DNA of 64,000 nucleotides from Adineta steineri (GCA_905250115.1 CAJNOI010000163.1:59707-123706); one strand, 5' to 3'. Positions 18,664-57,160 are shown, counted from the stretch's first letter. Notes: a model not told the origin generated them from the sequence alone. Translations and numbers: made by a program.

Positions 18664-21600
18664 ATGTCGAGAACTAAAGTCGAGCGTAAATATGTATGTG
18701 AATTTTATTTTATTTTTCCAGTAGAAATATATTTTTTGCTAATAGAATCCTGCTCAATATGATTCTGCATTTGATTCACTTCCGATTAATTCTCGTCGAT
18801 GTGTTGTCTTTTCTCCTGACAAGTAATAAGACATATTTTAAATAAAAATATTTAATTGATTATTATTCTTCAGTCCAAATAAGAAATTATGCCATTGTAA
18901 TCGAGCTGCAAATGAACATCCTGAAATAGATAATCAATCGAGAGAGAATGAACAATGGCGATTAGATACTCATACAATTAAAGAACCTAACAAAGAACAA
19001 GGTGTTTGTTTAACTAATGGAGCACCGGTATGAACAAAAAATAAAATAAATAAATTATATTGTTTATTTTCAATTGTATAGTATGTTCGATGTGATATTG
19101 AAACTGATCCAACTGTTGTTGAAACAATTCTTTTGGATATTTGGAAGATACCACGGCCAGCACTTTTAATGCAAATAATTGGTGGACATAAATATTTTAA
19201 ATTACAAGGAAAAATGGGAGATACTTTTCTTGATGATTTAGTGAAATTTGTAAGCAAATCAAGTAAGAATAAATTTTTTATTTTTATGTTTATATTGATT
19301 GGAAGTAAATTTTTGAAGACACTTGGTTACTTACAAGTGGAGCTAACGTTGGTATTGTTCAACTTCTTGGACAGACAATTCGCAAACGAAAATTAACCAA
19401 ACCACTAGATAAAACCGTAGCAATTGGTGTTTGTAATTATGGATGTATTAAAAATATAAAAGATTTTCAACGATTAGAACCAAATAATTTATCTTTAATT
19501 GAAAGTCAGGATTTAGTAAGTAGTTAAATCAAGAATTTTGAGTAAAATCTAAGAATTAAAAAAAAAAAGTTTATACAAATTATAAGAAAATATCTCCAGA
19601 GAGAGAAAAAAATGTAAAATATATTAGTAGTTCTTATTTAAAAAAAACGTTTCTTTTTCTATAGAAAAATGTGAATCAATGGCGAGCTGGTGAACAAAGT
19701 TTAGAAATGAATCATACACATTTTTTATTACTTGATGATGGAACAATTCGATATTTTGATATAGGTGATTATCGTACTCGTTTAGTAAAAACTATTGCAC
19801 ATAAACACACAAATCAAACTTTACCAAGTATAATTTATATTATTTTTCAAACAAAAAAAAATAATCAATTAAAATCTTTATATTTTAGTACCAATTGTAA
19901 CATTATTATTCGAAGGTGGTGAAGATTCAATTCGATCGATCTATAATGATCTTCGTAGAAATATTCCCATCATTATTATTAATGTAAATTATTCTAGTAA
20001 TAGAAAACTTATTATTTTATCTTTTAGAATACTGCTCGTATTGCTGATTATCTTGTTCGATGGTTATCAAGAACAACAGAAATGGATCTTGATGTTGATT
20101 GGACAAATCCAGTTGATATTAATGATTATATAATATCAAACAATTCAAATAATTTAGATTCTACTACGAATCCATCTAACAACTCTAATCAAAATCCGTA
20201 CGTAATATATTTAGAATTTATATACGACTTTTTTAATTTTATTACGCGAATACATAATAAGATGCCTGCCCTATAATGTCGCATATAGCAACTCCATCTT
20301 GGACTCAGTGAGGGGTTGGCAGGGGCGACGATTGTGGCGAAAAATCAGTTTTTGAAGTATCTTCGAAGTAGTATGTCATCTTTTTTAACGGCTTTTACTG
20401 AGAAAAAAGAATCGCGAAGGAATGACGGTCACCAATCACTGCGTTTGCCATTGCTTTGATTTAATTCTAACACCTCGGCTAATGGTTCTTCGTTTACTTG
20501 ATCTAATCAATAAATAATTTTCAAAGTTTTACTATGTATTCGCGTAATAAAACTAAAAATATTATGGCTAAGACTTTTGGTATATTTTTATTATTTAGTT
20601 TATTCGTAAAATTTGAAAAATATATCGATTCAATGAGTGATGAATTATTTCAAGCAATCAATGGTACTGATCAAAATCGTTCAAGAAAAATTATAATAAC
20701 AGATAATTTAAAAACAATTAATAATAATATTCTTCTTATGATTCTATATTGTTTACAACCAAAAGTTCGATCAAAAATAAGTATATTTGATTATAATAAA
20801 AATGAAAAATTATCTGAAACAATTCTTCGAAGTATTTGTAAATGTAAGAATTTGCTAATTAAATGTCTTATTTTTTTTCTATTTATTTTTTATAGCTGTT
20901 GAAATTAAAATTCATAAAAAGAAATCAAATTTAAAAAAAACTGATAATTTTATACCACATTTCGATCATCTACTTGAATTAGCAATTGATTGGGATTGTA
21001 TAAATACAGCAAAAGAATGGATTGTTCAAGATTCTCTCGATAATATTTATGATAAAAAATCTATATTTTTTCGAGCATTAACAAAACAACGACATAAATT
21101 TGTTCATTATTTTATTCAACTAGGATCTGAAATTGATGAAATATTTTTTCATCCAAAATTAAATCCATTTGCTTCAAGAAATAATAATAAACGTTATCAA
21201 GAATTCATATCATTATTATACACTGAAGAAGCTATTGTATGTATATGTCCTAGGGGAGATTAAATTTTGAAGGGTGCCAATGTGGGTGTGGGTGGGTGGG
21301 TATGGGTGTGGGTTGGGTGGATGTGGATTAGGTGTGGGCTGGGTGTGAGTATGATATTGGATGCGCTGGATCCACACCCATACTGACACCCTTCAAATTT
21401 TAATGTCCCCTAGGACAAATTAAAATCTTCAACTTTTAGTAGGAAATGTATGGAAAAAAACTATAATTTTAATTTCCCCTATAATATATATATAATAGTT
21501 AATGAATATTTCTATTTATTATTATTAGAATCGTGAAGATTGGTTACTTCGAAATATAATTCAAACTACAAATGATCGAAATGAAAAAATAATTTGTTCA

Positions 21601-24355
21601 ACTGATGATCTTAATCAATTATTTCGAGATCTTATTGGTGGTTATATCAAAAAGCTTTATTATGATACACAAATTGAAGAAGAAGAAGATCGTATGGGTA
21701 TTAAACATTTTACAAATATAATATCACCAATGCCTGATATTGAACAAGGACAATTAGTTCATACGGAAATTATTTATAAACAATTAGCAAAAGATTATAT
21801 TATTCGAGATCTTTTTCTTTGGGCTATCGCTATGAATTATATGGAACTTGCTAAAGTATTTCTTGCTCATATGAAAGATCGTATATGTGGAGCTTTAATA
21901 GCAACTGAAATTCTTTCACATTTACGTGATAAATCATCCGATGCTGTTTATGGTGATATTAAAGTTGATCTTACACGTTGGATTAAATATTTTGAACAAT
22001 ATGCACTTAATTGTATGGATTTATGTTTTAAAAATGATCCAAATATGGCACAAATATTAACTGTACAACGTGTAGAAGCGTTTGGTGATGTAACTTGTTT
22101 ACAGGTTAAAGAAAAAACAAAATTTTAAAACAAAAAATATTTGAATAATTTTTTCTATTAGGTAGCTGATGATGCAAATAGTAAACGATTTGCTTCACAT
22201 CCTTGTTGTAGACAAGCAGAGAATAGTATTTGGTATGATAAATTACATTCTGATCAATTTCATATACGTTATTATATCGGACAAGTAATTGGGATATGGA
22301 CATTAGGTTTACTTGCACCATTTACAGCGCGGTTTCGGTCTGTAAATCAAGTAAGAATTCTTTTGTTTTTCTATAACAAATTTTCGTTTTTTTTGTTATT
22401 GAAAGAACCCACTGCCAACTGAACCAACGTAAATAAAAATAAATAATTTTATTCAATAATAGTTTTTGTTTTTCTGTACTATATTTAGTTTACAACCATA
22501 TGGTATTAATTATTGTGATTCATATGCTATTAATCATTTTGATAACAATATTACTAAAAAATTGTATCAAATCTGGCAATTTCATCAATCTTTACATATT
22601 AAATTTACCTATCATCATGTATGATTTATTAAATAGATAATATAATTTATAAAATATTCTATTTTTTTTAGATTCAATATACAGTTTTTTTATTTTTATT
22701 CAGTTATGTTTTATTATTTAGTTTTGAACCAATTTATGATGATAAATCAAGCATTCATCTAGCAGAAATTTATGTTATTTTAAGCGTTACATGCATGCTT
22801 ATCGAAGAAATTCGTATTGTAATTTAAAACAAAAAAAAGAAATTTTTTTATTTTCTCGTATTTAGTTTTTTAGCCAAGATAGTCTTTCATTGATGGGCAA
22901 ATGTTATAATTATTTTGGTTATTTTTTCAAACAATTATGTTTAATTTCATTTCTTTTATTTTATATTGGTTTAATCTTACGATTTAAAGCTAATGGTTAT
23001 TCTGAAACTTTTCAAGCAGCTAGGTAAATTAGTTTTAAAATCATAAATAATTAAAAAACTTTTTTTTAATAGAGTTTTTTTGGGTTATGATTTATGGTTA
23101 TGGTGGATGAGATCTCTTTCATTCATTACAGTTAGTCCATTTCTTGGACCTCATTTAGTATCAATTGGAAAAATGGTAAGACATATACTAACGAGGGAAC
23201 ATACCAAACTGTCGGAGAGTGTGGGTGAGAGGAAAGAGAAGATCTACACCCACACCCACACCCTATGATAAAAAAATAGTTTTTGTATTTTAGTTAAAAA
23301 ATTTAGCATTTTTTGCTATATTTATCGCTGTTATGATGACTGCATATGGTGTAGCTTCACGATCGATGGCTTTTTATGGTACATTCCCATTTACTGGTCG
23401 AGAAATATTTAAATCCATTCTATATCCTGTTTATTATCTGCTCTATACAAATTTATCGGGTGAATTAAGTGGATTAGATGGTATATATATACATATATTG
23501 TAAAATACTCTGATGATGATGATGATGATTGATATTTTAGAATCGACCTATGATACTACAAGTATTGCTACGCATGTATTACTTGCTTTTCATATGCTTT
23601 TAATTAATGTTCTACTTGTTAATTTATTAATTGCAATGTTCAAGTATATTATTTGATTTTTTGTTTTCTACTATTGAATATTTTGTATTCTATATAATTT
23701 TAGTCAAAGTTTTCAAGATGTTCAATCGATTCAAACTGATATTTGGAATTATCAACAATATGCTGTTGTTAGAGAATATTATGATCGACCACCGTTATTC
23801 CTTCCATTCAGTACAATATTTGATATTATTGCTCTGATTAAAATGTTTTATCATTGGTATCTTCGAGTACGTTATAATTATGCTAATCCATTACAACGTG
23901 TATTTAGTAAGCTAAATTACCGAAGAAATGATAATTATTTTTAATGATTTTTGTTTTAGAAGTGATTGCTGTTCAACCAGAACTTGAACTTGTTTGGCAA
24001 GAATTTGAAAGTGCATCAACATATGCTTATGCACAACGTGAAGCATTGACTAAAATCGATAGGTGATTAAATATAAATAAAAGAAATTATTTTTGTATGA
24101 AATTTCTTATTTTTAGAGGAACCGTGGAAAATGATTCTGTTTCACGAGAATCCGGAGGTACAAGTGGAGATTCATCAGGAAGTAATAATCGAAAAGAAAA
24201 TGATGCAATTACGCAACTACGCAATGAATTTAAAATAGCAATTAGAGATATTCGAAATGATGTATGTTTAATGAAAATAATTATTAATCTTTTAGAACAT
24301 ACAATTATTTTTTTTCTTTAATTTTCAGATACGTCTTATCGCGAAACAAAAATGA
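18664..24355 (+). CDS. TRPM-type (melastatin-like) cation channel gene of more than 20 exons. It spans repeat-bearing introns.
   Basis: Proposed start MSRTKVERKY|NPAQYDSAFDSLPINSRRCVVFSPDNPNKKLCHCNRAANEHPE (compare the TRPM N-terminus ECVYF…CQCGY..HE). MHR region YVRCDIETDPTVVETILLDIWKIPRPALLMQIIGGHKYFKLQ…; LELAIDWDCINTAKEWIV (compare LELAMEWNRVDIAK). Pore/TRP region TSIATHVLLAFHMLLINVLLVNLLIAMF. C-terminus ends IRLIAKQK at about 24355. Two MITEs lie in its introns. Confidence 0.75.
20238..20560. mobile_element. MITE-like insertion of about 320 bp within a TRPM intron, with TIR TTTTATTACGCGAATACATAATAAG.
   Basis: 20238-20262 ttttattacgcgaatacataataag is the exact reverse complement of 20536-20560 cttattatgtattcgcgtaataaaa. 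The interior is GC-richer than the flanks and non-coding. Confidence 0.55.
21249..21415. mobile_element. Hairpin MITE of about 165 bp with 28-bp TIRs and a degenerate TGTGGG-like (telomere-motif) core, in a TRPM intron.
   Basis: TIR cctaggggagattaaattttgaagggtg … cacccttcaaattttaatgtcccctagg. Interior gtgggtgtgggtgggtgggtatgggtgtgggttgggtgg. Confidence 0.65.
23215..23268. repeat. Telomere-motif micro-hairpin (gtgtgggtg…cacccacacccacaccc).
   Basis: Inverted TGTGGG-like and CCCACA-like arms around a short spacer, in a TRPM intron. Confidence 0.5.
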
Positions 24356-27507: not shown

Positions 27508-27552
27508 CAGATATGATGGTTGAGGGTGGGTGACCCACACTCACCCTCAAGA
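27508..27552. repeat. Telomere-motif micro-hairpin (ggttgagggtgggtgacccacactcaccctcaag).
   Basis: Near-palindromic. Shares the CACCC(A)CCCTCAA(G) end motif with the copies at 37893 and 55060. Confidence 0.5.
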
Positions 27553-28442
27553 TGGTTCAAACCAAAGAAAGTATTTTTATTGACTTTATTTGAATGATTA
27601 TTTCAATAGAACGGTAAACATCTTTAATCATTTATTTGTCTTATTTTTGTATTTTAGTTCATTTCGTCAGACGACACTGAGGCATTATGCGAAACTAAAA
27701 AAGATTTTCGCGGCTACTACAAAACCCTTTTTTAGTTTCGTATGACGCCTTTTTTGTTTTCATTGTATCTAAAATTTATTGTAAACAGATCAAAACATAT
27801 ATGCTAGCAACCAGTGGGTTTCTACTGTATTTCACTGGAACACAACCTTATACAAGGAGTTCGTAGCTATCGATCTAACATTACTCGATGATGAAACTTA
27901 CAACTATTGTTTTTCTTCGATTGATATATTAAATTCTAGTTTTCAATTACGGATATTTGTAAAAAACTGATAACCAATATGACGTGGTTTCATACAAAAT
28001 ATAGAACACATAAATAACACTGTTTTTTGTTTTTATTTCACAAAATTCTATCGTTTCATTCTGTCATGAAATAATCAAATACAATGTTAGAAAAAGTAAA
28101 TTAAAAAACGTTTTATTACAAAACCTATTGATCTATTCTTATTCGGACTTTATTCAATCGAGTTAACAACAAAATATTCGTTCCTCTTGTATATCACTTT
28201 ATCACTAGAACTTAAGGAAAAAAATTAATAAATTCTGTTTCTTATCTCAGTGTATACTTTGTCGTCATTATTTTGCATTCTCTTCTCTTCAAATAAGTAA
28301 TTTCATCACTTTGAGAAATTGATAACATATCACAAATATAAACTCACGTAAAACGAAAGAAACAAAGCAACAATATATTTCATTCTACCAACATAAAGCG
28401 CCATACAAAGCCATCGCAGCAGTTTTAACCAACGTCGAAGAA

Positions 28443-31400
28443 AATGCCTGCTACGTTTCTTACATTACCGGTAGAGCTTGTCTACCGAATTCTGGATCAT
28501 CAGAGTGATTTAACAATAGTATGCTCAATGCAAAATGTGTGCCAACGGTTCAATGCAATTCTCAGCAGTTACCATCGATACCAAGTAAACTTTGTTTAAT
28601 CATGATTATCTATCTTTCTGCTATTTCTGAATTGCGTTCCATTCTTACCATCTATATCTCTGAGAAAATGCCTGAATAAAATAATGACGAAGCATATTAA
28701 TTCATCAAGCATTAATCTCCCCAAACGATTTATATACAGCACCATAGAAATAGAAAAGAAAAATGAAAATATACGTAAAAATCATATTCTCTTTACTTCT
28801 CTAAAAACTCCACTGTTTCCGCATCGTTTTTACCCGTCCATGTGCAATATTTAGAAGAAAAAGGAAAGGAGAAATTGTCTTTACCTGCATACCTGGACTA
28901 TTATTCATATATCTTTCGCGTTGAAACGAACTGTTTGGTAAAGACTGAAGGCTTCACAGGAGTTGTAGCTGAAATAAATCAATTATCCTTGATCAGGTTG
29001 ATTTTGCAGCCAGAAGATATCTAATATTATATAACATACTACTAGTTTTTTTCATTTCATATGAGCACATATTATTTCAGACAGGCTATACTTCGATTTA
29101 ATTAGTGGCATATGCCAGAATAAAGAAATGTGATAACACTCAGAGAGCCTACATATAGATCTTAAACATTTACACAGTTACGAACAGCATGAGCTCCTAC
29201 GATTCTATTAATTGTTTAATATCTAAATCATGTATAAACCTCTCTACGAACAATTAATCATCAAAAAACAGAGATGAGATAACCTTTTACAGATATGCGA
29301 CAAGATTTACTGAAGAACTACTAAACTGTAAATGATATACTCATAGCTAAATATTCAAATAAAACTTTGTTTACTTGATCACTAAATTCAACATCTATAT
29401 TGAAATATCTCAGTTTTCAATAGCAACACAGAACAATTCTTTGGCGCATAACATGACAGAAACTTCTCTGATCTGACTTGCTTAATTGAATATGATTGGA
29501 CATTCAGAAAGAATACTTGAATATATCGAGCAATACTTGATCATAAGCTTTATCTACAGTAACCCGATTGATTCCTTCTCTCTCATAATATTTTCCTTAA
29601 TTTTTCAACTCTCCAAGGTGGAGATTTGCAAAAAGTGAAATACCGAACTGTTCTATCCTCATCTCTTTCCACAAGATTTAACCAATGTCTCATACAGCAA
29701 TATGATAACTCTTCGTCCCTCTTTATCTATTCAATCTACTAATCTATATTGTTTCATACAGACACTCACCAACTTAAATCTCTTCTTCAATGAGCTCGGA
29801 GATCTTGGAGCACAGCAGCTAGCAAGTGCGTTACGAAATAATAAGGTAGATATCATTTTGTTCCACATCTATTTCATATATCCATCTGTAATTTTTCATG
29901 CAGACACTCACTATATTAAATCTTATATACAATCAAATCGGACATGCAGGAGCACAACATTTAGCAGATGGGTTACGAACTAATATGGTAAACATGATTC
30001 ATTTCCTCATCTATTTCATATATACATCTGCACTTTTTCATACAGACACTTACTACATTAGACCTCGCCCGCAATCACATCAAACATGTCGGAGCACGGC
30101 ATCTAGCAGATGCATTACGAACTAATACAGTAAATATCATTCTTTTCCTCATCTATTTCATATATACACCCGCACTTTTTCATGCAGACACTTAGCACAT
30201 TAAATCTCTGCCACAATGAAATCGGAGCTGTTGGAGCACAGCATCTAGCAAATGCATTACGAAATAATAAGGTAAATATTATTCCGTTCCACATCTATTT
30301 CATATATGTATCTGCACGTTTTTATACAGACACTTAACACATTAAATATTGAGAGCAATCAAATCGGAGATGTCGGTGCACAGCATCTAGCAGATACATT
30401 ACGAAATAATAAGGTAAGTATCATTCTGTTCCAGATCTATGTCATCTACACTTCTTCATGCAGACACTTATCACATTAAATCTTTGGAGCAATCAAATCG
30501 GAGATGTTGGAGCACAGCATCTAGCAGATGCATTACGAAATAATACAGTAAATAGCATTCTCTTTCTCATGTATTTCATACATTCATCTGGACTTTTTCA
30601 TGCAGACACTTACTAGCGTAGATCTCGGCAGCAATCAAATTAGAGATGTTGGAGCACAGCATCTAGCCGATGCCTTACAAAATAATACGGTAATTACCAT
30701 TGTCTTTCTCATCTACTTTATATATTCATCTACGCTTTTTCATACAGGCACTTACCACATTAAATCTTCGCAGCAATCATATCGGACATGTAGGAGCACA
30801 GGATCTAGCAAATGTATTACGAAATAATAAAGTAATTATCATTGTCTTGCTCATCTATCTTATATATCTATCTGCAATTTTTTATGCAGACACTTAGCAC
30901 ATTAAATCTCTACCACAATGAAATCGGAGCTGTTGGAGCACAGCATCTAGCAAATGCATTACGAAATAATAAGGTAAATATTATTCCGTTCCTCATCTAT
31001 TTCATATATCCATCTGCACTTTTTCACTCAGATACTTACGACATTAGATGTCGGCGACAATAAAATCGGATATGCAGGAGTACAGCATCTAGCAGATGCA
31101 TTACGAAATAATACGGTAAAAATCAGTATCTTGCTCATCTATTTTATATATCTATCTGCACTTTTTCATGCAGTCACTTACTAGGTTAGATCTCGCCAGC
31201 AATCAAATTAGAGATATTGGAGCACAGCATCTAGCCGATGCCTTACAAAATAATACGGTAATTACCATTGTCTTTCTCATCTACTTTATATATTCGTCTG
31301 CACTTTTTCATACAGACACTTAGCACATTAAATCTCGACCACGATGAAATCACAGATGTTGGAGTACAGCATCTAGCAAATGCATTACGAAATAATAAGG

Positions 31401-32270
31401 TAATTATCATTGTCTTGCTCATCTATTTCTTGTAACCATATGCGCATTTTGATGCAGACACCTATCACATTAAGTCTCGCGTGGAATAAAATCGGAGCTG
31501 TTGGAGCACAGTATCTAGCAGATGAATTACGAGATAATAAGGTAAATATCATTATATGCTTCGTCAATCTCATATATCCATGCGTACTTTGTCATACAGA
31601 CACTTACCACATTACATCTATCTGGGAATAGAATTGGAGATGTTGGAGCACAGCATCTAGCCGATGCCTTACAAAATAATACGGTAATTACCATTGTCTT
31701 TCTCATCTACTTTATATATTCGTCTGCACTTTTTCATACAGACACTTAGCACATTAAATCTCGACCACGATGAAATCACAGATGTTGGAGTACAGCATCT
31801 AGCAAATGCATTACGAAATAATAAGGTAATTATCATTGTCTTGCTCATCTATTTCTTGTAACCATATGCGCATTTTGATGCAGACACCTATCACATTAAG
31901 TCTCGCGTGGAATAAAATCGGAGCTGTTGGAGCACAGTATCTAGCAGATGAATTACGAGATAATAAGGTAAATATCATTATATGCTTCGTCAATCTCATA
32001 TATCCATGCGTACTTTGTCATACAGACACTTACCACATTACATCTATCTGGGAATAGAATTGGAGATGTTGGAGCACAGCATCTAGCCGATGCCTTACAA
32101 AATAATACGGTAATTACCATTGTCTTTCTCATCTATTTTATATATCCATTTGCACTTTTTCTTGCAGACACTTACCACATTAGATCTCGCGTACAATAAA
32201 ATCGGAGAGAAACTTGAGGGTGAAATCAATGAGTTCATTGTACAGAACAAGAAAGTGTCAAAGATGTGAA
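28443..32270 (+). CDS. F-box / RNI-type leucine-rich-repeat protein. Its LRR region is encoded by about 18 tandem 84-bp exons, each followed by a 58-bp intron.
   Basis: Exon 1 MPATFLTLPVELVYRILDHQSDLTIVCSMQNVCQRFNAILSSYHRYQ|gtaaac is an F-box. From 29761 each exon reads TLTxLNLxxNxIGDVGAQHLADALRNNK (RNI LRR) in phase 0, and each intron is gtaa…atctatttcatatatccatctgcactttttcatgcag. The last exon ends …YNKIGEKLEGEINEFIVQNKKVSKM stop (32270). The exons between 28587 and 29700 are unresolved. Confidence 0.6.
29761..32200 (+). repeat. Tandem array of 142-bp units (84-bp LRR exon plus 58-bp intron), about 18 copies, with a 100% identical 426-bp (3-unit) tandem duplication at about 31217-32124.
   Basis: Unit starts at 29761, 29904, … 30606, 30748, 30890, … 31458, … 31842. 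ORF pairs 31385..31573 / 31811..31999 and 31410..31631 / 31836..32057 are identical and offset by exactly 426 bp. Confidence 0.85.
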
Positions 32271-32773
32271 TGTTGATATCGACGATATACGGATTACTAC
32301 TAGAAAACTATTGATGCATTTATAAATAATTTTTTTTTGTTCTGTGTTATCGTAATCAAATATAAATAAAACTACTTTGCGGTGATATTTGTGATAGTTG
32401 ATGGAACTTTATATCATACTACAAAATTATGCATAATTGAATCTCGTTATTTGAAAAGGGACATATGTTAGAGTACCACAGTGCGTTACGGAATTTCATT
32501 TTTTTCACTTGTTGAATCCATATCTCTTCGATATCAAAAGAAATGTCTTGCAATTTTCATCAGAAATTCAGACTGTTAAGTTCTATTACCAGTAAATAAT
32601 TCATGAGGTTCCATGTTTTAGAAACAGAGTTATGGAAGAAACACTAATTCATCAGTGAAAATTTCAACAAAATCTTTGATATTTTGTTTTTTTCATTTGA
32701 TTCGATGTGAATAGTTTTATAATTTTCTAAATCATCTATTTGCAAAGATCAACTTGTTAAAGAGGGTGTTTTT

Positions 32774-32802
32774 AATGATACGGCGACCACCGAGATCTAC
32801 AC
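32774..32802 (+). other. Exact Illumina P5 flow-cell adapter sequence (AATGATACGGCGACCACCGAGATCTACAC) embedded in the assembly. This is an assembly/contamination artefact.
   Basis: 29/29 nt identity to the P5 oligo, read directly from the sequence at 32774-32802, in an otherwise AT-rich intergenic region. Confidence 0.9.
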
Positions 32803-33592
32803 TCCCATCCTCAAAATCTTTAATGAATTGATAGTATAAAATACGAGTGATAGCGACAGAGGAAGAGAGAGCAAGCACATCCCAAAGAGAGTAGAGAAAG
32901 AAATACTCCGTAGAAAATTCTTGAATTCAACAGGAAGGAAAAAAGAAAGCGAACATGTACTATTAACAAATTAGTAAGGGATGTTCTAGAAAAGGACGTC
33001 TGTCACTGATTATGAACATCTTTCTTGGCATAGTCATGCTTTTTTCAAGGTAAAATAGATCTGATATAAATTTTCTGATGCGCCTTTCATGCGTTAATAT
33101 ACAAACATTTGTATATTTGACAGGCGATCTTTTTTTCCAAAGAACCAACCTTGCAAAAGCAATTCTTTCTGATGTTTGTTTCATTCAAAATAGTTAATTT
33201 GACATTTTATGACGACAGTTATCTGTCTGTTATATAAATAGCACACAGATAGTTCCCACGATTTTTTAAAGAAATATTTTAACTAATGTCTGAACCCTTC
33301 TTCATTTTTTTATAAGAAGATTTTTTCTTGATACATCTCTTAGTGCATTTTTGTAAACTGAGAAAATATTTTTATCTTTAATGGACAGGATACTAAAAAT
33401 CATACTGTCAATACACACCTCACAGGAGAAAAAATGAGAGAACATCCGAACGTCTTATTCCGTATATATACACATTAGATAATTTACTTGACAGGCATAA
33501 TTTTTATTTCTGGAATATACTTAGACGATTACTTTGGATAGTTTGAAAAAATATTAATCTACTACAAACACGATATTCTTCGAATATATTAA

Positions 33593-34576
33593 ATGGCTAG
33601 TATTACATTGAAAGACATTGCTTTCGTCAATAACACAGCAACGAATGAAACATTATCATATCCAGTCAGCGGAATAGTTTTATCAAAAATGACTCGTTTT
33701 TGGATTCTTCTTATTTTTGAAGTTCCATCACTTTTCTGTTGTGTTTTATTACTTTATTATTTATGCTTTGATCGGATACAAAGAAATGCACTCAATAACC
33801 ATGTCATCATTGCTATTCTCATCTTTAATTTTTTCTTGCTGATTATTGATATTCCAAATTATCTTACACTTTTTCGTCTTCACTATGTCTGGCCATCAAC
33901 ACCAATTAACTGTTATATCTGGTTAGTTGTAGATATAGCTGGCTATTATGGATTAGGTATACTTATGGCATGGGCTTCGATCGAAAGGCACATTTTAGTA
34001 TTTCATCATCAATGGCTTAATACTTTAAAGAAACGTATTTTTATTCATTATATTCCATTAGCTGCAATTATTTTGTATCTGTCTATTTTCTACACTATAC
34101 TTATTTTCTTTGTGCCTTGTGATCATACATTAAATTACGCAGCATATACTTGTGGAGGTGCATGTGCGTATGAAATAGCAGCTCTTTCGATGTATGATGG
34201 ATTCGTCAATGGTGATATACCCTGTTTTGTAACTACAATATTCAACATTTTACTGGTTATTCGTGTTATCAAACAAAAACAACGTCTTCATCAACATGTA
34301 CAATGGCGTAAACATCGAAGAATGATTATACAACTGCTCGCGTGTGCCGGACTCTTTATTGTATTCAATCTTCCTCTGGTATGCATTTATGTCGCTCAAG
34401 CATTCGGTGTACCGTATGGTGCAACTGGTCAATTTGAGTATTTTGTTTATTTTCTGGCTTATTTCATTATGCTTTGGATGCCTTTCGTGTGTCTTGGATC
34501 ATCACCAGAAATCTTATCAAAAATAAAGAGAATAATGAAACCACAACGTATCAACACTACAATTACTCCACATTAA
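33593..34576 (+). CDS. Intronless seven-transmembrane receptor-like protein (rhodopsin-class-like GPCR, orphan), 327 aa.
   Basis: Seven hydrophobic segments. ASIERHILVF sits at the TM3 end (E/DRY-like ERH). Basic ICL3 KQKQRLHQHVQWRKHRR. NLPLV…WMPFVCL in TM6/7. Confidence 0.5.
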   Translation: MASITLKDIAFVNNTATNETLSYPVSGIVLSKMTRFWILLIFEVPSLFCCVLLLYYLCFDRIQRNALNNHVIIAILIFNFFLLIIDIPNYLTLFRLHYVWPSTPINCYIWLVVDIAGYYGLGILMAWASIERHILVFHHQWLNTLKKRIFIHYIPLAAIILYLSIFYTILIFFVPCDHTLNYAAYTCGGACAYEIAALSMYDGFVNGDIPCFVTTIFNILLVIRVIKQKQRLHQHVQWRKHRRMIIQLLACAGLFIVFNLPLVCIYVAQAFGVPYGATGQFEYFVYFLAYFIMLWMPFVCLGSSPEILSKIKRIMKPQRINTTITPH

Positions 34577-37912: not shown

Positions 37913-38769
37913 TTATAAGGATATTCTCTAATTCTTTCCTATGATTGCTATTGAAAAAGGCATGTAGATTTTTCTTTAGAATTAATTTAAATTACAATGT
38001 AAATATAAAAATAGTTAATAATTCTTTTAAATACACAATGATATAAATTGGTACTATGAATATCAGAAGAGTTCAATAAAAAAATTGGATGTTATTTTGT
38101 AGGATTCAACTTCATCAAATAAGCAGAACTGGATCGGAATAAATACAACAGTCCCATTGTTCATCTTTAGTAGAAGTAACAAAGAGTTTCGGTTAAACTT
38201 TGATGGCATATTTGATTTGAGCTGTGCTAGAAATTGCTTACGACAATGGTTGGTAATGCACGTTATCTTTGGATAGTTTTTTATATAAGTGTTAAGGTTT
38301 GACCCACGCCAATGGTGGCTGGATTACAGGAAATTTTACTTAAACAAAATTAATAAAATATGAAATTTATTGAGAGTTCGATAGGCAGTTTACCGTTTTT
38401 TTCGATCTTGTTTTTTGTCATTGGGAAGACTCTTCGTCAATGTATTTTCGGTAGTAAATGATACTGATTGTACATTAAGAACATCCGACAAGGTTGAATA
38501 GCCGAGAATTTGATTCATCAATAAAATACGAAGTTCATATAATTAAATTATATACAAGAATGATGAAAAAAGTCAAGCTCACTTGTTGCGTCAATAAATC
38601 GAGTTGTACTCGTGTGTACATGCTTCTATAGACTAGATCCGTTGAAAAGAAACAAAATCATCAGGTGATAATTCTTATTAATGATGAAACGTCTTTTATA
38701 CCATTATCAGTTGTGCTCTATGTCAATGCAGAACCTTTCATAGGTAGATAGGCAGTAATCAATGATAAA

Positions 38770-40771: not shown

Positions 40772-41506
40772 CTTTTAAAAAGTGACAAGCGAATGAGTAA
40801 AGATAATATCAAAAAGGTACTGTTTTATTGATAAATCCCTTTACTGATATTTACTATTTTGTTCTTTCTTACATCGTATATCAATAAATAGTATGTTAGT
40901 TAGTCGTGAGAGGTGAAAGTATAATGTCTAGAGACAAAAGAAAATAAAAAAATATTTGATTAAGGTCTGTGAAAGAAAATAATTTCGATAAATCACTACG
41001 AAGATAGGGCGTAGGTGCGAATTTGTGTCATCTTTAACTGACATCCACTACACTCACATCTTGCATTTGATAGCTTCGTAAATTATTTCTATCGTTGATC
41101 TATACGATTTATTAAACATATAGTCTTTATCATTCATAAACTCCAAAACTTTTGGCTTGATTTCAACGAAAAACAATATAACTAAAATTAACATAGATGA
41201 TATTGTCGTGAGATTGAGAATGATAAAAGAAATACTCTCAAACAATTAGCGACGATATTAATGATAAAATGTAGTAATACTGTATTGGCGGAAAAGTAAA
41301 AATTTCCATAGAATACCTTGCATTACATCGGCTTGTGCAATAACATTACATGCATACAACGTGCAGAATTGTTAAAAATATTTACCTACTTATTTTTCTT
41401 TGTATCGGAGTTACATGTTACTGAATGAGTCATTCGTTCTATATCTCGACATTGAAAAATCAGTCAAAAAAAATGAATATGTTCGAAAATTCTTGATTAA
41501 TTTCAG

Positions 41507-46586: not shown

Positions 46587-47284
46587 ATGGTAAGTTAATT
46601 TAATATCATATATATATGTAGAAACAACGCTGAAAATTAAATATTTTATTCTAGGCTGATCAATTGACAGAAGAACAAATAGCTGAGTTTCAAGAAGCTT
46701 TTTATCTATTTGACAAAGATGGTGATGGAACAATTACAACAAGACAATTGGGTACGAAATTCTTTATTTATTTTTCTTTAGATCTATATATATTTATTTA
46801 AATATTGATTAGGTACAGTGATGCGCGGTCTTGGTCAAAATCCAACTGAAGCTGAATTGCAAGATATGATCAATGAAGTTGATGCTGATGGTAAGGTTTT
46901 AATCAATCAAATAGTAAACTTGATTATATTAAAAAAGAAAAGAATTTTTAACCTTTGATTGAAAATTTACTTCTGTTTGTTTTATTGTTAGGTAATGGTA
47001 CAGTTGATTTTCCTGACTTTTTAACGATGATGGCACGTAAAATGAAGGATACTGATTCGGAAGAAGAAATTCGCGAAGCATTCCGTGTCTTTGACAAGGA
47101 CGGTACTGGATTTTTATCAGCTGATGACTTGCGGTAAAGGAAAAAACTAGTATATAAATATATTTATTCTGCTTTCTTTCAAGTCATATCATGACAAATT
47201 TGGGTGAGAAACTCACCGATGAAGAAATTGATGAAGTCCTTCGAGACGCAAATATTGATGAAGGTTAGACTGTTATTTTTATTA
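46587..47284 (+). CDS. Calmodulin-like gene. Exon 1 is ATG only, followed by 4 exons encoding EF hands 1-3 and half of EF hand 4. The C-terminus is truncated or divergent.
   Basis: ATG|gtaagt at 46587-46592. Then [133 protein letters not shown], about 90% identical to canonical CaM over residues 1-133. The frame then hits TAG (47282-47284). No exon encoding DGQVNYEEFVQMMTAK was found downstream. Confidence 0.65.
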
Positions 47285-47461: not shown

Positions 47462-47530
47462 AGTGGATGGGTGTAGTGTGAGTGTAGTTATAGATATTAC
47501 ATCCGTCTTTCTTACACACCCTTATGTTTG
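47462..47530. repeat. Telomere-motif micro-hairpin (gtggatgggtgtagtgtgagtgtag…ttacacaccc), located just 3' of the calmodulin-like gene.
   Basis: G-rich TG/GGGTG arm opposed by cacaccc. It sits where the missing last calmodulin exon would be expected. Confidence 0.4.
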
Positions 47531-50778: not shown

Positions 50779-52329
50779 TTAAACTTTAGTTAAAATCCAA
50801 CGTAGGGCATCGTTTTGAACAAAATCGACGATGCCGACGTTGGATGTATCATGAAGAGCAAATACACGCCACCATGCATTTCGAGGTCGGAAGCGGAATA
50901 CATTGTTTCCGTACGAAGAAAGTACCCATTCCTGATTAACATTGCTTGACCAATTGTTTGTTTGAACTCCACCAGTTTTTGCCGTTACATTGTAAGCGGT
51001 AAGAGCACTGGCGTTGGCATTTTGTGACGATAATCGATAAGTACCATTATCAAGCCAACTAATATTCCATTTCTGATGTGCACTATTGCATCCTCCACTT
51101 TCTAATTGAACTCTACTGACGTTGCCATTGACATAAGTACTAAGACATTTATCTGGTTGTGATTTCGGCGCGAGACGATAAATGCCATCGGGAAGAACAC
51201 GAGCTAATTCTTCTTGCATTTGCATATAGGCCGGTTTCAGCTGATAATTCGAGTCACTAGGTAGTGCAGCTCCTTCCGTATTGTTATAAAAAGCAGGAAC
51301 CCAACTGTATCGATCGGTGAAACCCCAAGTGATTAGTGCACGACATCTTGGAGAAAAGTGTAATGCATACTTCAAGAGAGCACGATAGAGACGGCCTTGT
51401 CTCTCTAAATCATTCGGATCTCGAGGATTTCCTGCATTTATCGGAATAGCTACATCTAACTCAGTTACCATGAAATCAAAGTCATTGTCTATTAATCGTT
51501 GAGCATTCTGGTAATGTTGATCACCAGGATTGACTGTTCGTGAGATTCGTATATGCCATTGCATACCAACACCGTGAATGGTAGCACCTTGTGATCTCAC
51601 CCATTTGATTAGTTCAAGTACTCTACTTGATTTTGATCCCATATCTTCATTATTATAATCATTGTAATATAATTGAGCCTGAGGATCAGCTTGATGAGCA
51701 AACATAAAAGCATATTTAACAAAATCTTGGCCCAATTTTCGATACCAAAAGCAATCACGCAAATTAAATGGACGACTATTATTCTTCGAATCCTCGACGG
51801 CTTCATTTACTACATCCCACCAAAGTACTTTGCTTCGGTAGCGACCGACTACTGCATGAATGTAATCACTCAACAATAACTTGACTTTGTCGGATGATAA
51901 TGACGATTCCTGTTTCAATAACCAGTCTGGCGTATATTTGTCTTGAGCCCACACTAGAGTATGTCCTCGTATTTGCATTCCATTCTGTTGAGCCCATCCT
52001 GTGGAATTTGGTGTCGAGCCCAAAAGCCAATCACAGTCGATCCAACTGTAATTGTTTATACCACGCCACAGTTTCATAGGTTTAAAATCGTTCTCCGGCT
52101 CAATCACATGATAGTTTTTTTTTATAAAGGAGTTGTACTGGCCACCGTCGATATCCTTTCGTAAATTGTTAATGCTAGCTGCTGTGCCAAATAAAACGCC
52201 GCGAAGAGCTGAAGATGCTCGAAGTCCAAATGGATCTATTGCCCTAACAGGTGCACTATTCATCAAGTAGTACCATAGTAGTATCGTCGTCCACTTCCTG
52301 ATGAACGATGATGAGAAATGGCACTGCAT
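50779..52329 (-). CDS. Secreted GH10 endo-1,4-beta-xylanase with a C-terminal ricin-B lectin (CBM13) domain, intronless, 516 aa.
   Basis: GH10 catalytic signatures WDVVNEAVED (acid/base Glu) and MVTELDVAIP (nucleophile Glu). HTLVW and ITWGFTD are also present. C-terminal QxW repeats: AHQKWNISWLDNGTYRL, NQEWVLSSYGNNVFRFR, NDALRWIL. N-terminal signal peptide. The ORF is GC-richer than its flanks. Confidence 0.85.
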   Translation of the reverse strand: MQCHFSSSFIRKWTTILLWYYLMNSAPVRAIDPFGLRASSALRGVLFGTAASINNLRKDIDGGQYNSFIKKNYHVIEPENDFKPMKLWRGINNYSWIDCDWLLGSTPNSTGWAQQNGMQIRGHTLVWAQDKYTPDWLLKQESSLSSDKVKLLLSDYIHAVVGRYRSKVLWWDVVNEAVEDSKNNSRPFNLRDCFWYRKLGQDFVKYAFMFAHQADPQAQLYYNDYNNEDMGSKSSRVLELIKWVRSQGATIHGVGMQWHIRISRTVNPGDQHYQNAQRLIDNDFDFMVTELDVAIPINAGNPRDPNDLERQGRLYRALLKYALHFSPRCRALITWGFTDRYSWVPAFYNNTEGAALPSDSNYQLKPAYMQMQEELARVLPDGIYRLAPKSQPDKCLSTYVNGNVSRVQLESGGCNSAHQKWNISWLDNGTYRLSSQNANASALTAYNVTAKTGGVQTNNWSSNVNQEWVLSSYGNNVFRFRPRNAWWRVFALHDTSNVGIVDFVQNDALRWILTKV

Positions 52330-52667
52330 TGCTTTAGCAAATTATGTGACACAACTATTATAAAAAAGAAAGATTGGTATTGTTCTACTGATGCCGGTTT
52401 ATTTTATTTTCATTTCTTTGAAGAATTGAAATAATACTTTAATCTTTTTTAATATACAGTAGATCATGTTTCATTCTCATCAATTTAGAGTAGGTGTCGA
52501 TTAAATATGGTACCCATATTCTCGTCAATCTCCATCGCTAATCATTCGCACTGTCGTTAAGATGTACCTTTTTGTACTTCATATTTTGGTTTCTAATGAA
52601 CTATGTTTCGTAACAGATGTAATTTTCTCTATAAACATGCAGCAAAGAGTTTATTGAGATAGTTCTT

Positions 52668-52735
52668 GAGCATGTGGGTGTGGATAAAAGCAATACATAT
52701 AAATATCACCTCAGCATGAACACCCACATTCTACT
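52668..52735. repeat. Telomere-motif micro-hairpin with termini catgtgggtgtgg … catgaacacccacat.
   Basis: The CATGTGGGTG/CACCCACATG terminal inverted pair is the same as in the copy at 57098. Confidence 0.5.
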
Positions 52736-52985
52736 AAAAAGTATCCTAATAAATCATAGTTGTATCGAATTCATATAAATATTTCGATTTATAGAATTAA
52801 AAGTAAACTTAATGGTTACAATGTAATTTGAAATATTGATAAATAAGCAATAGAATAAAAGATAAAGCATACTAAAGAAGTAAACAACCGAATAAGAACA
52901 TAAAAATATTCAAGAGAACTTCACAAATTACATGTTATCTAAGTATGTTATTTTTTTTCTACAATATTTTGAGATACAATACAAA

Positions 52986-54047
52986 TTATGAGAGGTTGGA
53001 CATTTTTCTTTTAGAAATTCCACGTGCATCACATTCGCAGATATTTAAAAGAATATCTATAGCACGAGAGTCAGAATTTGTAATGATTATGTCTTGATAA
53101 GTATCATCATTAAAATCATAAACACCAATATCAGATCCATAACGGACCATCTTATCCGATAATATGTTTTGCGTCTCAAAATAGCCGTCCCCATATCCAA
53201 GTAGCACATCTATACCATATGGCCTACCCGCAGCAGCAATGTCTAAATGATCATCACAATTAAAATCACCTACAACAACTGTAGATGGTATGCGATTAGA
53301 TTTCATGACAAAGTTATTCTTGACGGTGAAAAATCCATTTCTATATTTAGACAACACAGTGACTATGTTTATGCGTTCATCAGAGACAACGACGTCTGGT
53401 TGAGCATCGCCGTCAAAATCACCGCTTACACTATGGTGTGGATCAGAACCCAGGAAAGTATAAGATCGCTTCTGTACTTCAAAAGTTCCATTACCGCACC
53501 CAAGAAATATACCAACATTTACAGCTCTACTATTGGTGACAGCAATATCTACGTGTCCATCGCTATTAAAGTCACTAACAGTCAATGATTCAGGCTCACT
53601 TTGATATCCAGTAGAAAACATCAGCTGCGGTGAAAAAGTGTCATTAGCATTTCCAAAAAACACACAGACATTAGAATTAACAGTATTAATGACAGCAATA
53701 TCTGAATAATTGTCATGATTGAAGTCGACTACAACGATGTCATCGGGTATACATTTCGTTGTCCCTAATATTATATTCCGGACTCTAAAAGTTCCGTTAC
53801 TATTTCCAAATAGAATGTTTACATAGTTTGCATCGCTAATGGTGAATACGAGATCGGCTCGATTATCATTATTGAAATCACCAACTTTCATATGTGTCAT
53901 CCATAAAAAACTTCCTTTTTGAAAAATATTTTCTTTTGTAAAACGTCCGTTAGCATTCCCAGACAGTATGATCACACTTTCGTGATAGTTAGAAAAAACC
54001 ATAATATCAAGCCGACTGTCATCGTTGAAATCAGCAACAGCAAACAT
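52986..54047 (-). CDS. FG-GAP/VCBS-repeat (integrin-alpha-like beta-propeller) protein. The main ORF is intronless and there is a possible short upstream signal-peptide exon.
   Basis: At least 7 repeats of the form DFN(N/H/S)D.hhDIhV…h(F/L)GNGNGTF, for example VGDFNNDNRADLVFTISDANYVNILFGNSNGTF, VVDFNHDNYSDIAVINTVNSNVCVFFGNANDTF, VSDFNSDGHVDIAVTNSRAVNVGIFLGCGNGTF. An aatag acceptor lies just upstream of the first ATG in frame. Confidence 0.7.
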   Translation of the reverse strand: MFAVADFNDDSRLDIMVFSNYHESVIILSGNANGRFTKENIFQKGSFLWMTHMKVGDFNNDNRADLVFTISDANYVNILFGNSNGTFRVRNIILGTTKCIPDDIVVVDFNHDNYSDIAVINTVNSNVCVFFGNANDTFSPQLMFSTGYQSEPESLTVSDFNSDGHVDIAVTNSRAVNVGIFLGCGNGTFEVQKRSYTFLGSDPHHSVSGDFDGDAQPDVVVSDERINIVTVLSKYRNGFFTVKNNFVMKSNRIPSTVVVGDFNCDDHLDIAAAGRPYGIDVLLGYGDGYFETQNILSDKMVRYGSDIGVYDFNDDTYQDIIITNSDSRAIDILLNICECDARGISKRKMSNLS

Positions 54048-55024
54048 TATATCACCGTAAGCAATATCCGATATATTTATTGATATTGATCGAAATTCTA
54101 ACTTGCAAAGTGGAGCTATTAAAAATAAAATAATAAATTACTTTTTCGTATTCTTAGCGTAAAAGTATCTGGAAACATATTTATGCAAGTTGATATTAGA
54201 ACAGCTATTACATTTTTAGTTTTAGCAATCATTGAATAGCAGGAATACTCTACTAACTACGTTTGATTTAATTCATCTGGACATATTTAATCAAGAGAGA
54301 GAAACAGACGATTCTAGTCACTGGAATGGGAACCAAAAGCTATTATTACACTACTAAACTATAGATAAGAACTAAGTTGTAACTTCCATTATTTTGACGG
54401 AGAAGTTTTATTCTACAGCAATAACAAGTTTCAAAACACTTGTTAAAATTTAACTTGTGAACAGGAATAAGTTTCTGGTTATTCAGATTTAAAAAATAGT
54501 TTCATTTAACTATTATAGACATAAAACATATAGTGTTGTCCACACTAGTCAGAAAGTTCGTGACGATTTTATTTTGTACAAACTCTGAAGGAAACCTCGC
54601 CTTGTACTTTCATCATCTAGCTTCGATCACTGTAATATAGAAAAGTAGACAGGATAAAAGATCAATTCGAGTGATGTCACAACGAATGTGAATAGTTTCG
54701 AGTAATTCTATGTGAATCTATAGTCAAAAGATATCCACTGAGTTTTGTAACAATAGCGCTTTTTCTTGTATAACCAGACTATAAGAATTCCAACTATATA
54801 AGAGCTGAAGTTTGTCAGTTTTTCACTTTAATTCACTGACCTGTTGTGCTTGACAATGTTGATGTTGTTGTGTTTATTGTTGAGTTCAAATTAGTATCAA
54901 CTGTTGCACTGGCTGATGAAACTAATAAAAATATATTTGATAAATGCTCTCTTACAAAAATTTATTAGCTTAAATATTAAGAAAATTCAAAGTAAAATTG
55001 CATATAAAAGAACAATTTAGAGGT

Positions 55025-55080
55025 AGATGTGGGTGATTTTTCTTTGATAGATCACATCAACATCCTCACCCACCCTCAAG
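55025..55080. repeat. Telomere-motif micro-hairpin (gatgtgggtgattttt…cctcacccaccctcaag).
   Basis: Shares the CACCCACCCTCAAG end with 27508. Confidence 0.45.
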
Positions 55081-55345
55081 AATAATCAACGACTATCACA
55101 TTTACATTTATTTCGTCTTCCTGAGATTAATTTATTTAAGGTTTTGAAATGAATTCGAAGTGACTTTGCATGGCAAAATAAATTACACGTGTGAGGGAAT
55201 TTTATGCTTACCTTGTCGTGCGACATAAAATGAAAAAATAGTTAGAACTAATATGATCGAAATCAATAGTAGACATCCGAGGAGGATCTTCCAAGAACAT
55301 CGAATTGATGTAGTGACAATTGTTCTAATAAAAAGATATTTTAGA

Positions 55346-57022
55346 TTACAATTTGAATGAATACAACAGAACAAAAACATACCGAGATGTTATAGATGTC
55401 GGTCTCGATTCTGAGTTAGAAGCAGGATTATGTATGGTTGTGCTAAGAGTAACATTTGGTGTTATTTCAAGAGAATTGACAGGATGAATAGTATTCATCC
55501 GTTTTTTTCGATAATTATTTACTCTAAATGCAATTCGAACTATTTTAGGACAAATCCATTTAAGAACAATTGCTAAACCACCTTGAAGACCAAGTAAGAC
55601 AGTTATTATATAGATAAAGCTGCTTTTTTTTTGAATATAAGTATATGAACAATACGATAGAGAACATGCATGAAAATAAGATGAATAATTCATCTTCGTC
55701 TCCCATTTCTCGATGAATAGATTATCGATAAGTACAGCTATTGTAGTGTTTATTGAGAAGCGACTCCTATTGGCCAAGAGAGGATTATGAGATTTCGTAT
55801 AATTAGTATATTTATGAACGAGATCAATACATGAACGATCATAAAAACATTCAAGAGTCGAAGCACGAAATGATTCGCTTGGAGTACAACCAATTTTCAA
55901 ACCTTTAATTGGAGTTATTTCAGATGAATTTGATTTAATAAAATTTGCTTGACTTGTACAATTTAAATACAATCCACAAGAACACCCGTCATAAATTATA
56001 GCTCGAGTAGACGCATAAGTATATTTACGTGAATTCGGAACACCAATATATTCGAAATTTGTTGTATATGTTGACATGTAAGCATTTCCATGATTGATAT
56101 TTCGAATTAAGAAGAGAAGTTGACGGAATGTAGTAGGTACATTTGATTTGGTTTGTTCGATTAACGAATCAAGTTGATCACGAAAATTTGTTTCAGATAG
56201 AAGTTGAGAAGTAACAAATAGTGAGGTACGAAACTGGTTAATAGAATCGTATACTGATGTATTAGAGAGTTGACATAGTCCTTGAAGAGCTTGTAAATGA
56301 GCAGAAAGAAAACGACGATAGTCTCTTGATACATAAATAGACAAGTTAGAGATAAGACCAGATATAAGATCATTTCGGTATTGTTTTGTTGCAAATGGAC
56401 TCATACAAATCTATAAATAACAAAAGAAATAAAAAGAGGGAAAAACTATATTCTCAATTTCTATATAAAGCGTCCACAAAAACATTCTCATAAAATAAAC
56501 CTCCTTTTTTCAGTCAACTATCAACATATTTATTAAAGATATTATTCATTTCGGTTGTCAAGATTTATAATAGAGACGAAGAGAAGAACCGCCACTATAT
56601 CAACTATCGTTTATATTGAGCAGATTAGTATAATCTTAACTAACCGCATGAAATATTGGTTCAATTTCGATAAACTGATCATAAGTCGATGCAATCACTG
56701 AGCATGGACATTTTAATTCATCTCCATATTTTTGTCTTGAATCATTGTAAAACCTAAAAGATGGTTTATTGAAAGTCTTTGTCACTACTTGTGGTTGAAC
56801 TACGGTATAGATGGTGAGGATACTAAGACCACCGATGAATAAAGCAATGTAGAGACGGGTCGCCCATTGACCAAGACGTTTAGCTATTATTCGATCCATA
56901 CCACTACCCATATCACGTAATGAGAATATGTTTAGATCGATCAAAGTGGTACGCAAAAGTTTAATCAGACTTCGCATAGTAATTCTGAATCGATCGCACC
57001 AATTTTGATGAACTATACACAC
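55346..57022 (-). CDS. Member 1 of a lineage-specific two-TM membrane protein family with an N-terminal signal anchor, a conserved C-P-C-S motif, a large Cys-containing ectodomain and a C-terminal TM. Two exons: 57022 to about 56640 and about 56404 to 55346.
   Basis: Exon 1 …LYIALFIGGLSILTIYTVVQPQVVTKTFNKPSFRFYNDSRQKYGDELKCPCSVIASTYDQFIEIEPIFHAV. Exon 2 …GCSCGLYLNCTSQ…LECFYDRSCIDLV…YFHACSLSYCSYTYIQKKSSFIYIITVLLGLQGGLAIVL (C-terminal TM) followed by a basic tail. Paralogs lie at 57445-60984 and 61532-63009. Confidence 0.55.
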
Positions 57023-57097
57023 AAAAACAAATTATACATTTTCTTCGTTGATATAAAGTTTACTATTTCTCAACCGAAAAAGATGGTTGAAAAAAAT

Positions 57098-57160
57098 TTA
57101 CATGTTGGGTGTGGGTGTGGGTGCGTAGTCATTCGATTTCATTGACACCCACATCCGACT
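57098..57160. repeat. Telomere-motif micro-hairpin (catgttgggtgtgggtgtgggtgcg…cattgacacccacatcc).
   Basis: Contains (TGTGGG)2-like units, with an inverted cacccacat end. Confidence 0.5.

Follow-up and report, generated by a model that had tools for sequence, protein, structure and literature searches.

Short head-to-head telomere-repeat pairs in Adineta steineri: candidate scars of double-strand-break repair

How do short inverted pairs of telomere-like repeats come to lie in the introns and between the genes of a bdelloid rotifer? The question is raised by a stretch of 64,000 nt from Adineta steineri with a G+C content of 30% (hereafter the window; positions are counted from its start), in which a first-pass annotation had noticed about ten small foldback elements built from TGTGGG and CCCACA motifs. 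TGTGGG is, as that annotation said, the accepted telomere repeat of bdelloids (PMC7943196, PMC8494291). Bdelloids withstand extensive breakage of their DNA, and foreign genes are unusually numerous in their genomes. We find about a dozen short head-to-head telomere-repeat pairs in the window, and on balance we regard them as short interstitial telomeric repeats that are probably scars of double-strand-break repair or of end capture.

Convergent pairs in the window and in other bdelloids

To score telomere-like runs, each 12-mer was compared with all phases of (TGTGGG)n, and first-order Markov (Markov-1) shuffles served as the null. Runs matching at 10 or more of 12 positions number 24 in the window against 2.1 ± 1.8 in shuffled DNA, and those matching at 11 or more number 12 against 0.1. 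The first-pass annotation had proposed a genome-wide comparison of the motifs with expectation from base composition; within the window, the ~11-fold excess at the lower threshold answers in its favour. The pairs are convergent, that is, a G-run is followed by a spacer of 10–45 nt and then by a C-run; their density is roughly one element per 5–6 kb, and the DNA-fold z-scores of real pairs range from −1.3 to −4.1. Many arms open with a conserved non-telomeric leader, AAC(C/T)ATCTTGAG, usually on one arm and sometimes on both.

The orientation is close to a rule. When the window was pooled with three other A. steineri loci (L001, L003 and L004) and one Rotaria locus (L007), giving a non-redundant 142.6 kb of bdelloid sequence, adjacent G- and C-runs were convergent (G then C) in 20 cases and divergent in 2, and both divergent cases are two pairs standing side by side. 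Two G-strand extensions meeting one another would give exactly this polarity. In Rotaria such pairs have arms of up to 86 and 75 nt. About 50 low-GC contigs of matching architecture, mostly from moss-associated samples, were recovered from metagenomes with TCTTGAGGGTGTGGGTG; of 37 arms in this set that were chosen for their leader, 16 have a C-run partner on the inner side and not one has it on the outer side. Since like pairs occur in Rotaria and in environmental contigs, the feature is class-wide and not particular to the window. In long pairs the orders of variant repeats differ between the two arms, which marks the arms as independent syntheses.

Two further observations concern the metagenome contigs, which may hold assembly palindromes. 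In L033 (1380–1707) and L120 (1500–1640) the inverted repeat reaches into the flanks around a head-to-head telomeric centre, over 100 bp or more in L033; either the palindromes are genuine and large, as sister-end fusions would be, or they are assembly artefacts. In L026, L028 and L099, moss-metagenome contigs of other bdelloid species, the telomere-like arrays consist mostly of TGAGGG units with a higher-order periodicity (TGAGGG about every 19–24 nt in L099, a repeat of roughly 65 nt in L026), which suggests species-specific, possibly long, telomerase templates.

The elements of the window, with one haplotype-specific segment, are as follows.

21249–21415 (e21): palindromic insert with a G-run at 21279–21353 and a short C-run at 21369–21391.
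23215–23265 (e23): G-run GAGAGTGTGGGTGAGAGG, centre AAAGAGAAGATCTA and C-run (CACCCA)x3, in an intron of ~110 nt.
27520–27557 (e27): smallest pair, with a leader on both sides, TTGAG on the left and the full 12 nt on the right (minus strand, AACCATCTTGAG).
32762–32816 (e32): decayed pair GAGGGTGTTTTT...GAGATCTACACTCCCATCCTCAAAATC, its leader decayed too; better kept at L129 9156–9204.
34709–34841 (e34a): lone C-run (34709–34724), 113-bp insertion (34725–34837) and TCAA tail (34838–34841).
34883–34936 (e34b): G arm decayed to TGTGGATGTGAATGTAAGT, opposite CACACCCACACAT; the G arm is intact in L129 (TTTAGGTGTGGGTGTAGAT).
37867–37914 (e37): G-run GCGGGTGTGAGTGG, spacer, CTACACCCACACCC, then a TCAA tail (5-nt minus-strand leader).
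39571–39638: haplotype-specific segment, 68 bp in place of 180 bp in other haplotypes.
41006–41048: weak candidate for a decayed pair, GATAGGGCGTAGGTGCG...CATCCACTACAC, at a threshold of 9/12; L129 17537 reads AGGGCGTGGGTGCG.
47468–47525 (e47): doubtful member, TGGGTGTAGTGTGAGTGTAG...ACACACCC.
52664–52732 (e52): plus-strand leader TCTTGAG (52664–52670) and G-run, 33-nt spacer, CACCCACAT.
55022–55081 (e55): GATGTGGGTG, spacer, CACCCACCCTCAAGA, with minus-strand leader TCTTGAG.
57103–57158 (e57): G-run (TGGGTG)x3, 22-nt spacer, CACCCACAT, no leader; fold z-score −2.75.

Eight of the ten sites named in the first-pass annotation are indeed a G-run, a spacer and a C-run, and its view of them as telomere-derived and placed in introns or intergenic DNA was borne out. 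The site at 34690 is not a pair: no inverted G-run partner of the lone C-run is found in any haplotype. That at 47462 keeps a G arm scoring 10/12, but its C arm lies below threshold and its fold z-score is −0.5. Two decayed pairs, e32 and the candidate at 41006–41048, were missing from the earlier list. The fold z-score of e27 is −4.1, and its left arms are longer in the L129 and L133 orthologues.

The first-pass annotation had placed one element exactly where the last calmodulin exon appears to be missing, but that site, e47, is the weakest of all, nothing connects it with a lost exon, and the calmodulin-like frame simply meets an in-frame TAG after ...IDEG. That gene (46600–47120) has four EF-hand exons, the last of which ends in …RDANIDEG and a stop, with the usual C-terminal helix missing; an unusually long gap of ~435 nt separates it from the next exon-like open reading frame (ORF), and a different exon follows the 47462 site. 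Elsewhere in the window, a C9 run and a G8 run (TAAACCCCCCCCCATA, TAGGGGGGGGTTTAT) stand inverted at 928–943 and 1326–1340, ~400 bp apart, upstream of a leucine-rich-repeat (LRR) ORF.

Leader, trailer and spacers

The leader takes the form (AA)CCATCTTGAG followed by GGTGTGGG in Adineta, and AACTATCTTGAG followed by GGTG in environmental contigs. The window, further A. steineri loci and the ~50 moss-metagenome contigs all have it, and the flanks beyond it are unrelated. Shorter forms nest within longer ones (TTGAG, TCTTGAG, ATCTTGAG and so on), the lengths pile up at exactly 12 nt, and position −8 is not conserved. In the window it is present at e27, e37, e52 and e55, decayed at e32, and represented by a related TTTGAAGGGTG at e21. 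The leader recurs within arrays, as in L040, where ...GGGTGTG is followed by ACTATCTTGAG and GGTATGGG, and likewise in L099, which is expected if copying restarts on one template; it also heads long arrays that reach contig ends. Many G-runs are followed by a trailer, (TAGA)TCTTCTCTTTA, which on the opposite strand reads AAAGAGAAGATCTA; as trailer or centre, this motif occurs in e23, in e32, at Rotaria L007 26686 and at several metagenome loci. The leader, its sharp limit, the nested lengths, the recurrence in arrays and the trailer together argue for the copying of a single RNA that carries a C-rich template.

The first-pass annotation had already noticed part of this pattern. Its CACCC-CTCAAG end, which proved to be the key conserved feature, is exact at 55060–55080 and approximate at 27531 (CACTCACCCTCAAG) and 37893 (CACCCACACCCTCAAT), while the shared end CATGTGGGTG...CACCCACAT holds at 52668 and is matched only approximately at 57098. 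A literature search with the leader motif strings returned only unrelated primer sequences. The motif CAAGATGG was considered as a start-codon context and dropped, the reading frames after it being very short only. At 15413–15452 we observed AAACCATCTC, then a (CACCTA)-type C-rich run, CACCTACACCTACATCTACACCTACACCCC, with a leader-like AACCATCT on the 'wrong', C-run side.

Most spacers are unrelated to one another, and a subset shares a centre of roughly 10 nt, AAAGAGAAGA. This bears on the idea of a family of miniature foldback elements, put forward in the first-pass annotation, if it is taken as a mobile family of miniature inverted-repeat transposable elements (MITEs) or foldbacks, as does the search for target-site duplications, which found none at e21, e23, e52, e55 and e57; at e27 the leader (CTCAAGATGGTT) accounts for a GATGG repeat. 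Leaders sit on one arm in most pairs, arms of long pairs are not mirror images, and lone arms exist (e34a in every haplotype, and several metagenome loci). We therefore could not uphold the family in that form. The best case for it was the segment at 21249–21415, described as a classic MITE. The inverted repeat at its outer ends (21249/21414) is real, 28 nt long with 2 mismatches, or 31 nt if TGT/ACA is counted, but the element is a single-copy palindrome: neither a target-site duplication nor, in the window or 128 other loci, a second copy was found, and the inner ends of the repeat are the leader-like TTTGAAGGGTG. The element is situated 12 nt into a TRPM-like gene's intron. It seems to be a palindromic insert of the kind represented by the other elements, only larger.

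Haplotypes, related species and breakpoints

In other A. steineri assemblies, at 93–97% identity, e23, e27, e32, e34a, e34b and e37 stand at the same sites (e37 in all haplotypes compared, e23 also in L130 and L131), and among haplotypes diverged by 3–7% no element shows a simple presence/absence difference. What does vary is arm length: the e34a C-run measures 15, 23, 27 or 43 nt by haplotype. Insertion becomes visible at a greater distance. From 17.6 to 26.7 kb the window is collinear with L135, a contig from a more distant bdelloid, and in L135 the intron that holds e21 (~284 nt in the window) measures 52 nt and that of e23, also in the TRPM-like gene (~110 nt), measures 47 nt, both without the element; e21 and e23 are therefore lineage-specific insertions. 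Extra non-telomeric DNA comes with e21.

The later fate of a tract can be followed at e52, whose orthologue at L003 1467–1538 differs by one 6-nt unit and by ~15% substitutions, against ~11% in the flanks, and no compensatory changes were found between the two, which points to neutral decay and not to a selected hairpin.

The first-pass annotation had suggested that the elements could be hotspots for breakage, and this finds some support, since arm lengths vary by haplotype and several structural differences lie on or at the edge of a tract. At e34a the 113-bp insertion parts the C-run from its TCAA tail; in an alignment, the C-run of the other haplotypes is uninterrupted (23, 27 or 43 nt) and ends CCCTCAA. 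At 39571–39638, the 180 bp of the other haplotypes are unrelated DNA that opens with a G/C pair absent from the window, its G-run lying 1–2 nt from the homology break. In L003, a diverged copy, a leader and G-run begin exactly where collinearity ends (L003 3915, window 50251). The synteny between Rotaria and the window stops at pairs ~260 nt after the FG-GAP gene, and the GH10 gene is absent there. A search for the source of haplotype-specific segments of 113, 68 and 135 bp identified none. A difference between L001 and L002 at 1046 was also considered as a breakpoint and proved to be a scaffold gap (N).

Two further structural differences were seen. In L133, 18834–20984 is a second copy of the e34a/e34b region (window 34215–37792), followed by a 1.3-kb deletion, and the scaffold has several joins to distant window positions (13.9 kb, 25.1 kb); whether by segmental rearrangement or by faulty scaffolding, either could produce this. 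At the start of L003, immediately before its FG-GAP gene, 62 nt match window 56100–56161 in inverted orientation at 92% identity, hence an inversion or a deletion between two copies beside that gene.

The genes of the window, positioned with the help of ORFs and of third-party gene calls for related loci, are a mixture of ordinary animal genes (a TRPM-like channel, the calmodulin-like gene, a G-protein-coupled receptor and an HSP70 fragment) and bacterial-looking, intron-poor ones (GH10 with a ricin domain, FG-GAP/VCBS, ADP-ribosylglycohydrolase and GDSL lipase). The receptor ORF (33593–34576, 327 aa) is 100% identical to an A. steineri protein, and the best matches of the FG-GAP ORF are from A. 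steineri and Rotaria. An LRR-coding tandem array at 29700–32210 gives many internal paralogous alignments at ~80% identity, and its repeat number varies among A. steineri haplotypes. On the minus strand of 50779–58050 lie the intron-poor GH10 gene with its ricin lectin domain, the FG-GAP/VCBS gene and two tandem uncharacterised membrane-protein paralogues, with telomere-repeat pairs between consecutive genes. There, e52 follows the FG-GAP stop codon at a distance of 254 nt, e55 is intergenic, 268 nt past the stop codon that closes the 55346–56404 ORF, and e57 sits between the two paralogous minus-strand genes. In Rotaria L007 the genes from the paralogues to FG-GAP stand in the same order and GH10 is missing, so GH10 is possibly an addition of the Adineta lineage and may have been added at a pair.

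Origin of the pairs

How could such pairs arise? The description of them as footprints seeded by telomeric repeats comes close to the explanation that we consider best, and it is somewhat more probable to us than otherwise that the 3' ends on either side of a break were lengthened by a reverse transcriptase, telomerase being the likeliest, which also copied RNA beside the repeat template, and that the ends were then joined. Each site would have begun as a double-strand break, on either side of which the enzyme would extend the 3' end from a C-rich RNA template. The left end would gain TGTGGG-type repeats on the top strand and the right end on the bottom strand, the top then reading CCCACA, and joining of the capped ends with little filler would leave flank, G-run, spacer, C-run and flank. 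On a non-telomeric end, copying would often start 3' of the template, placing the leader AAC(C/T)ATCTTGAG before the G-run, and an occasional read-through past the template would add the trailer (TAGA)TCTTCTCTTTA. Neutral decay of the tracts, slippage in steps of 4–6 nt and a lasting fragility would follow. The telomerase RNA would then be predicted to carry CUCAAGAU(A/G)GUU 3' of its template, and its locus to hold about AGATCTACACCCACACCCTCAAGAT(G/A)GTT without extended repeats.

Vertebrates offer the nearest documented case: there, telomeric repeats at breaks are flanked by a retrotranscribed fragment of the telomerase RNA from next to the template (TERC-ITS, ITS being interstitial telomeric sequences; PMC8537989; PMC2246262). 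Among 41 such loci in 30 vertebrate genomes, three are head-to-head, one in Xenopus and two in mouse lemur, and they were explained by the authors as telomerase acting on both sides of a break (PMC8537989). The vertebrate loci (Nergadze 2007, PMC2246262; Sola 2021, PMC8537989) resemble ours in having repeats at internal breaks, empty orthologous loci and filler or deletions. They differ in that the head-to-head arrangement is the rule in bdelloids, the elements are far denser and the leader is at most 12 nt long, its derivation from a telomerase RNA being proposed here. Closer in kinship are lines of A. vaga, where telomeric repeats and Athena fragments at fresh deletion breakpoints were read as transient neotelomeres leaving scars (PMC13564844). 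These too are telomeric repeats added at broken ends, in the same animal group, but they were described from soft-clipped reads at a few recent breakpoints, with no fixed pairs, orientation rule or leader (PMC13564844). A further comparison is with telomere–telomere fusion, which also gives head-to-head G-strand and C-strand arrays. The human site 2q13 is one such fusion. Fusion, however, is a single event joining two chromosomes, whereas the window holds about a dozen pairs in 64 kb, within conserved synteny and even in introns. Chromosome fusion sites were in fact rejected, because synteny with A. steineri haplotypes, L135 and Rotaria continues through most pairs.

Several points weigh against scars of telomerase-mediated repair. 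On this reading the leader would be a copy of the flank of a telomerase RNA template, but its sharp 12-nt limit suits an RNA whose 3' end is fixed, for instance an Athena RNA cleaved by a ribozyme, at least as well as an internal region of a telomerase RNA. The stereotyped layout of leader, G-run, centre and C-run would also fit a small hairpin retroposon. As a density of repair scars, one element per 5–6 kb is very high. Repair of this kind also leaves the spacers unaccounted for, and with them 17 nt in the outer inverted repeat of e21 that are neither telomeric nor flank-derived. Finally, the spacers of e57 and of a pair at L001 17744 share a 9-mer, CGAATGACT, which could be chance among all the pairs compared.

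The first alternative is a non-autonomous hairpin or foldback mobile element, either MITE-like DNA or a retroposon resembling a short interspersed element, whose terminal inverted repeats would be the leader and the telomere-like repeats and which would spread by transposition. We consider this unlikely, although it deserves the most attention of the alternatives. With MITEs and foldback transposons the pairs share small size, inverted-repeat arms, non-coding sites and lineage-specific insertion (e21 and e23); the layout with its centre (AAAGAGAAGA) recurs in many unrelated loci and genera, the leader stands at both ends in e27, L074, L120 and L042, and e21 adds its 28-nt inverted repeat to the inverted telomere-like arms that all pairs have. 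Yet the expected target-site duplications are missing, the ends are asymmetric with the leader mostly on a single arm, the telomeric-repeat arms vary, are not mirror copies and sometimes stand alone, and the spacers are mostly unrelated, the ~10-nt centre of a subset being the sole conserved internal sequence. Moreover, some arms lie at the edges of rearrangements beyond which synteny does not resume, and the same leader heads long arrays running to contig ends. An all-against-all BLAST of 471 kb of bdelloid-like DNA, with runs masked, found no longer parent element next to any arm.

The second alternative keeps the copying of an RNA at a break and changes the enzyme. The pairs could be extremely 5'-truncated cDNAs of the 3' end of an endonuclease-deficient Penelope-like element (PLE) of the Athena/Terminon kind, primed on free 3'-OH groups at breaks, with the leader as a ribozyme-defined RNA terminus (...CUCAAGAURGUU-3'); element consensus 3' ends would then show CTCAAGAT(A/G)GTT after the C-rich repeats. 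To our mind this is rather improbable, slightly more so than transposition of a hairpin. Athena and Terminon elements, which are abundant in bdelloid subtelomeres among foreign genes, have C-rich reverse-complement telomeric repeats at the RNA 3' end and prime from free 3' ends. Endonuclease-deficient PLEs carry (ACACCC)n beside a hammerhead ribozyme at that end and prime on exposed ends or breaks (PMC8557442, PMC3846280), and, as said, Athena fragments occur at A. vaga deletion breakpoints (PMC13564844). PLE reverse transcriptases also tend to form inverted repeats by self-priming, and the sharp 12-nt limit of the leader ends in the complement of GUU. GUU is a permitted hammerhead cleavage triplet. 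On the other side, Rfam gathering searches of the window and of 20 loci gave no match to a hammerhead or to any other family, and neither a reverse-transcriptase ORF nor any longer Athena-like sequence lies beside an arm. Athena chains have a single orientation; canonical attachment, reportedly described by Gladyshev and Arkhipova in 2007, gives same-orientation and not head-to-head repeats. The irregular, species-specific repeat variants and the long arrays resemble iterative telomerase products instead.

Selected intergenic elements, that is, paired telomere-repeat binding sites or hairpins serving as insulators, terminators or promoter elements, are very improbable: at least one arm is present in ~12 of 14 intergenic spacers above 500 bp in annotated A. 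steineri loci, e52, e55 and e57 lie 254–288 nt downstream of stop codons and the Rotaria pairs ~260 nt downstream of the orthologous FG-GAP gene, but the e52 orthologues diverge as described, arm lengths are free to vary among haplotypes, the strand of the elements relative to neighbouring genes is inconsistent, the syntenic Rotaria locus L007 lacks both e55 and e57, and two elements are intronic. Poly(A) signal positions around e52, e55 and e57 are likewise inconsistent. The elements were also considered as GT...AG introns or introners and rejected, as e55 is antisense to its neighbour genes and e21 and e23 lie within larger introns.

If repair by capping and rejoining is indeed the origin of the pairs, a fixed, orientation-specific signature of these two steps would log past breaks across the whole genome. 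Through the leader one could look for the bdelloid telomerase RNA, or for the template of another reverse transcriptase, and the pairs would be a marker with which to ask whether foreign genes entered, and rearrangements arose, at capped ends. Published counts of TGTGGG density would then mostly measure scars and not proximity to telomeres. A wider statement, which we put forward tentatively and hold to be clearly less probable than the origin of the pairs in repair, is that bdelloid chromosomes are routinely re-stitched at ends first capped by telomerase on both sides, that tens of thousands of head-to-head mini-telomeres may record this breakage and possibly the capture of foreign genes, and that the leader and the trailer may reveal the surroundings of the telomerase RNA template, ...AAGAUCUA-CACCCACACCC-UCAAGAU(A/G)GUU.

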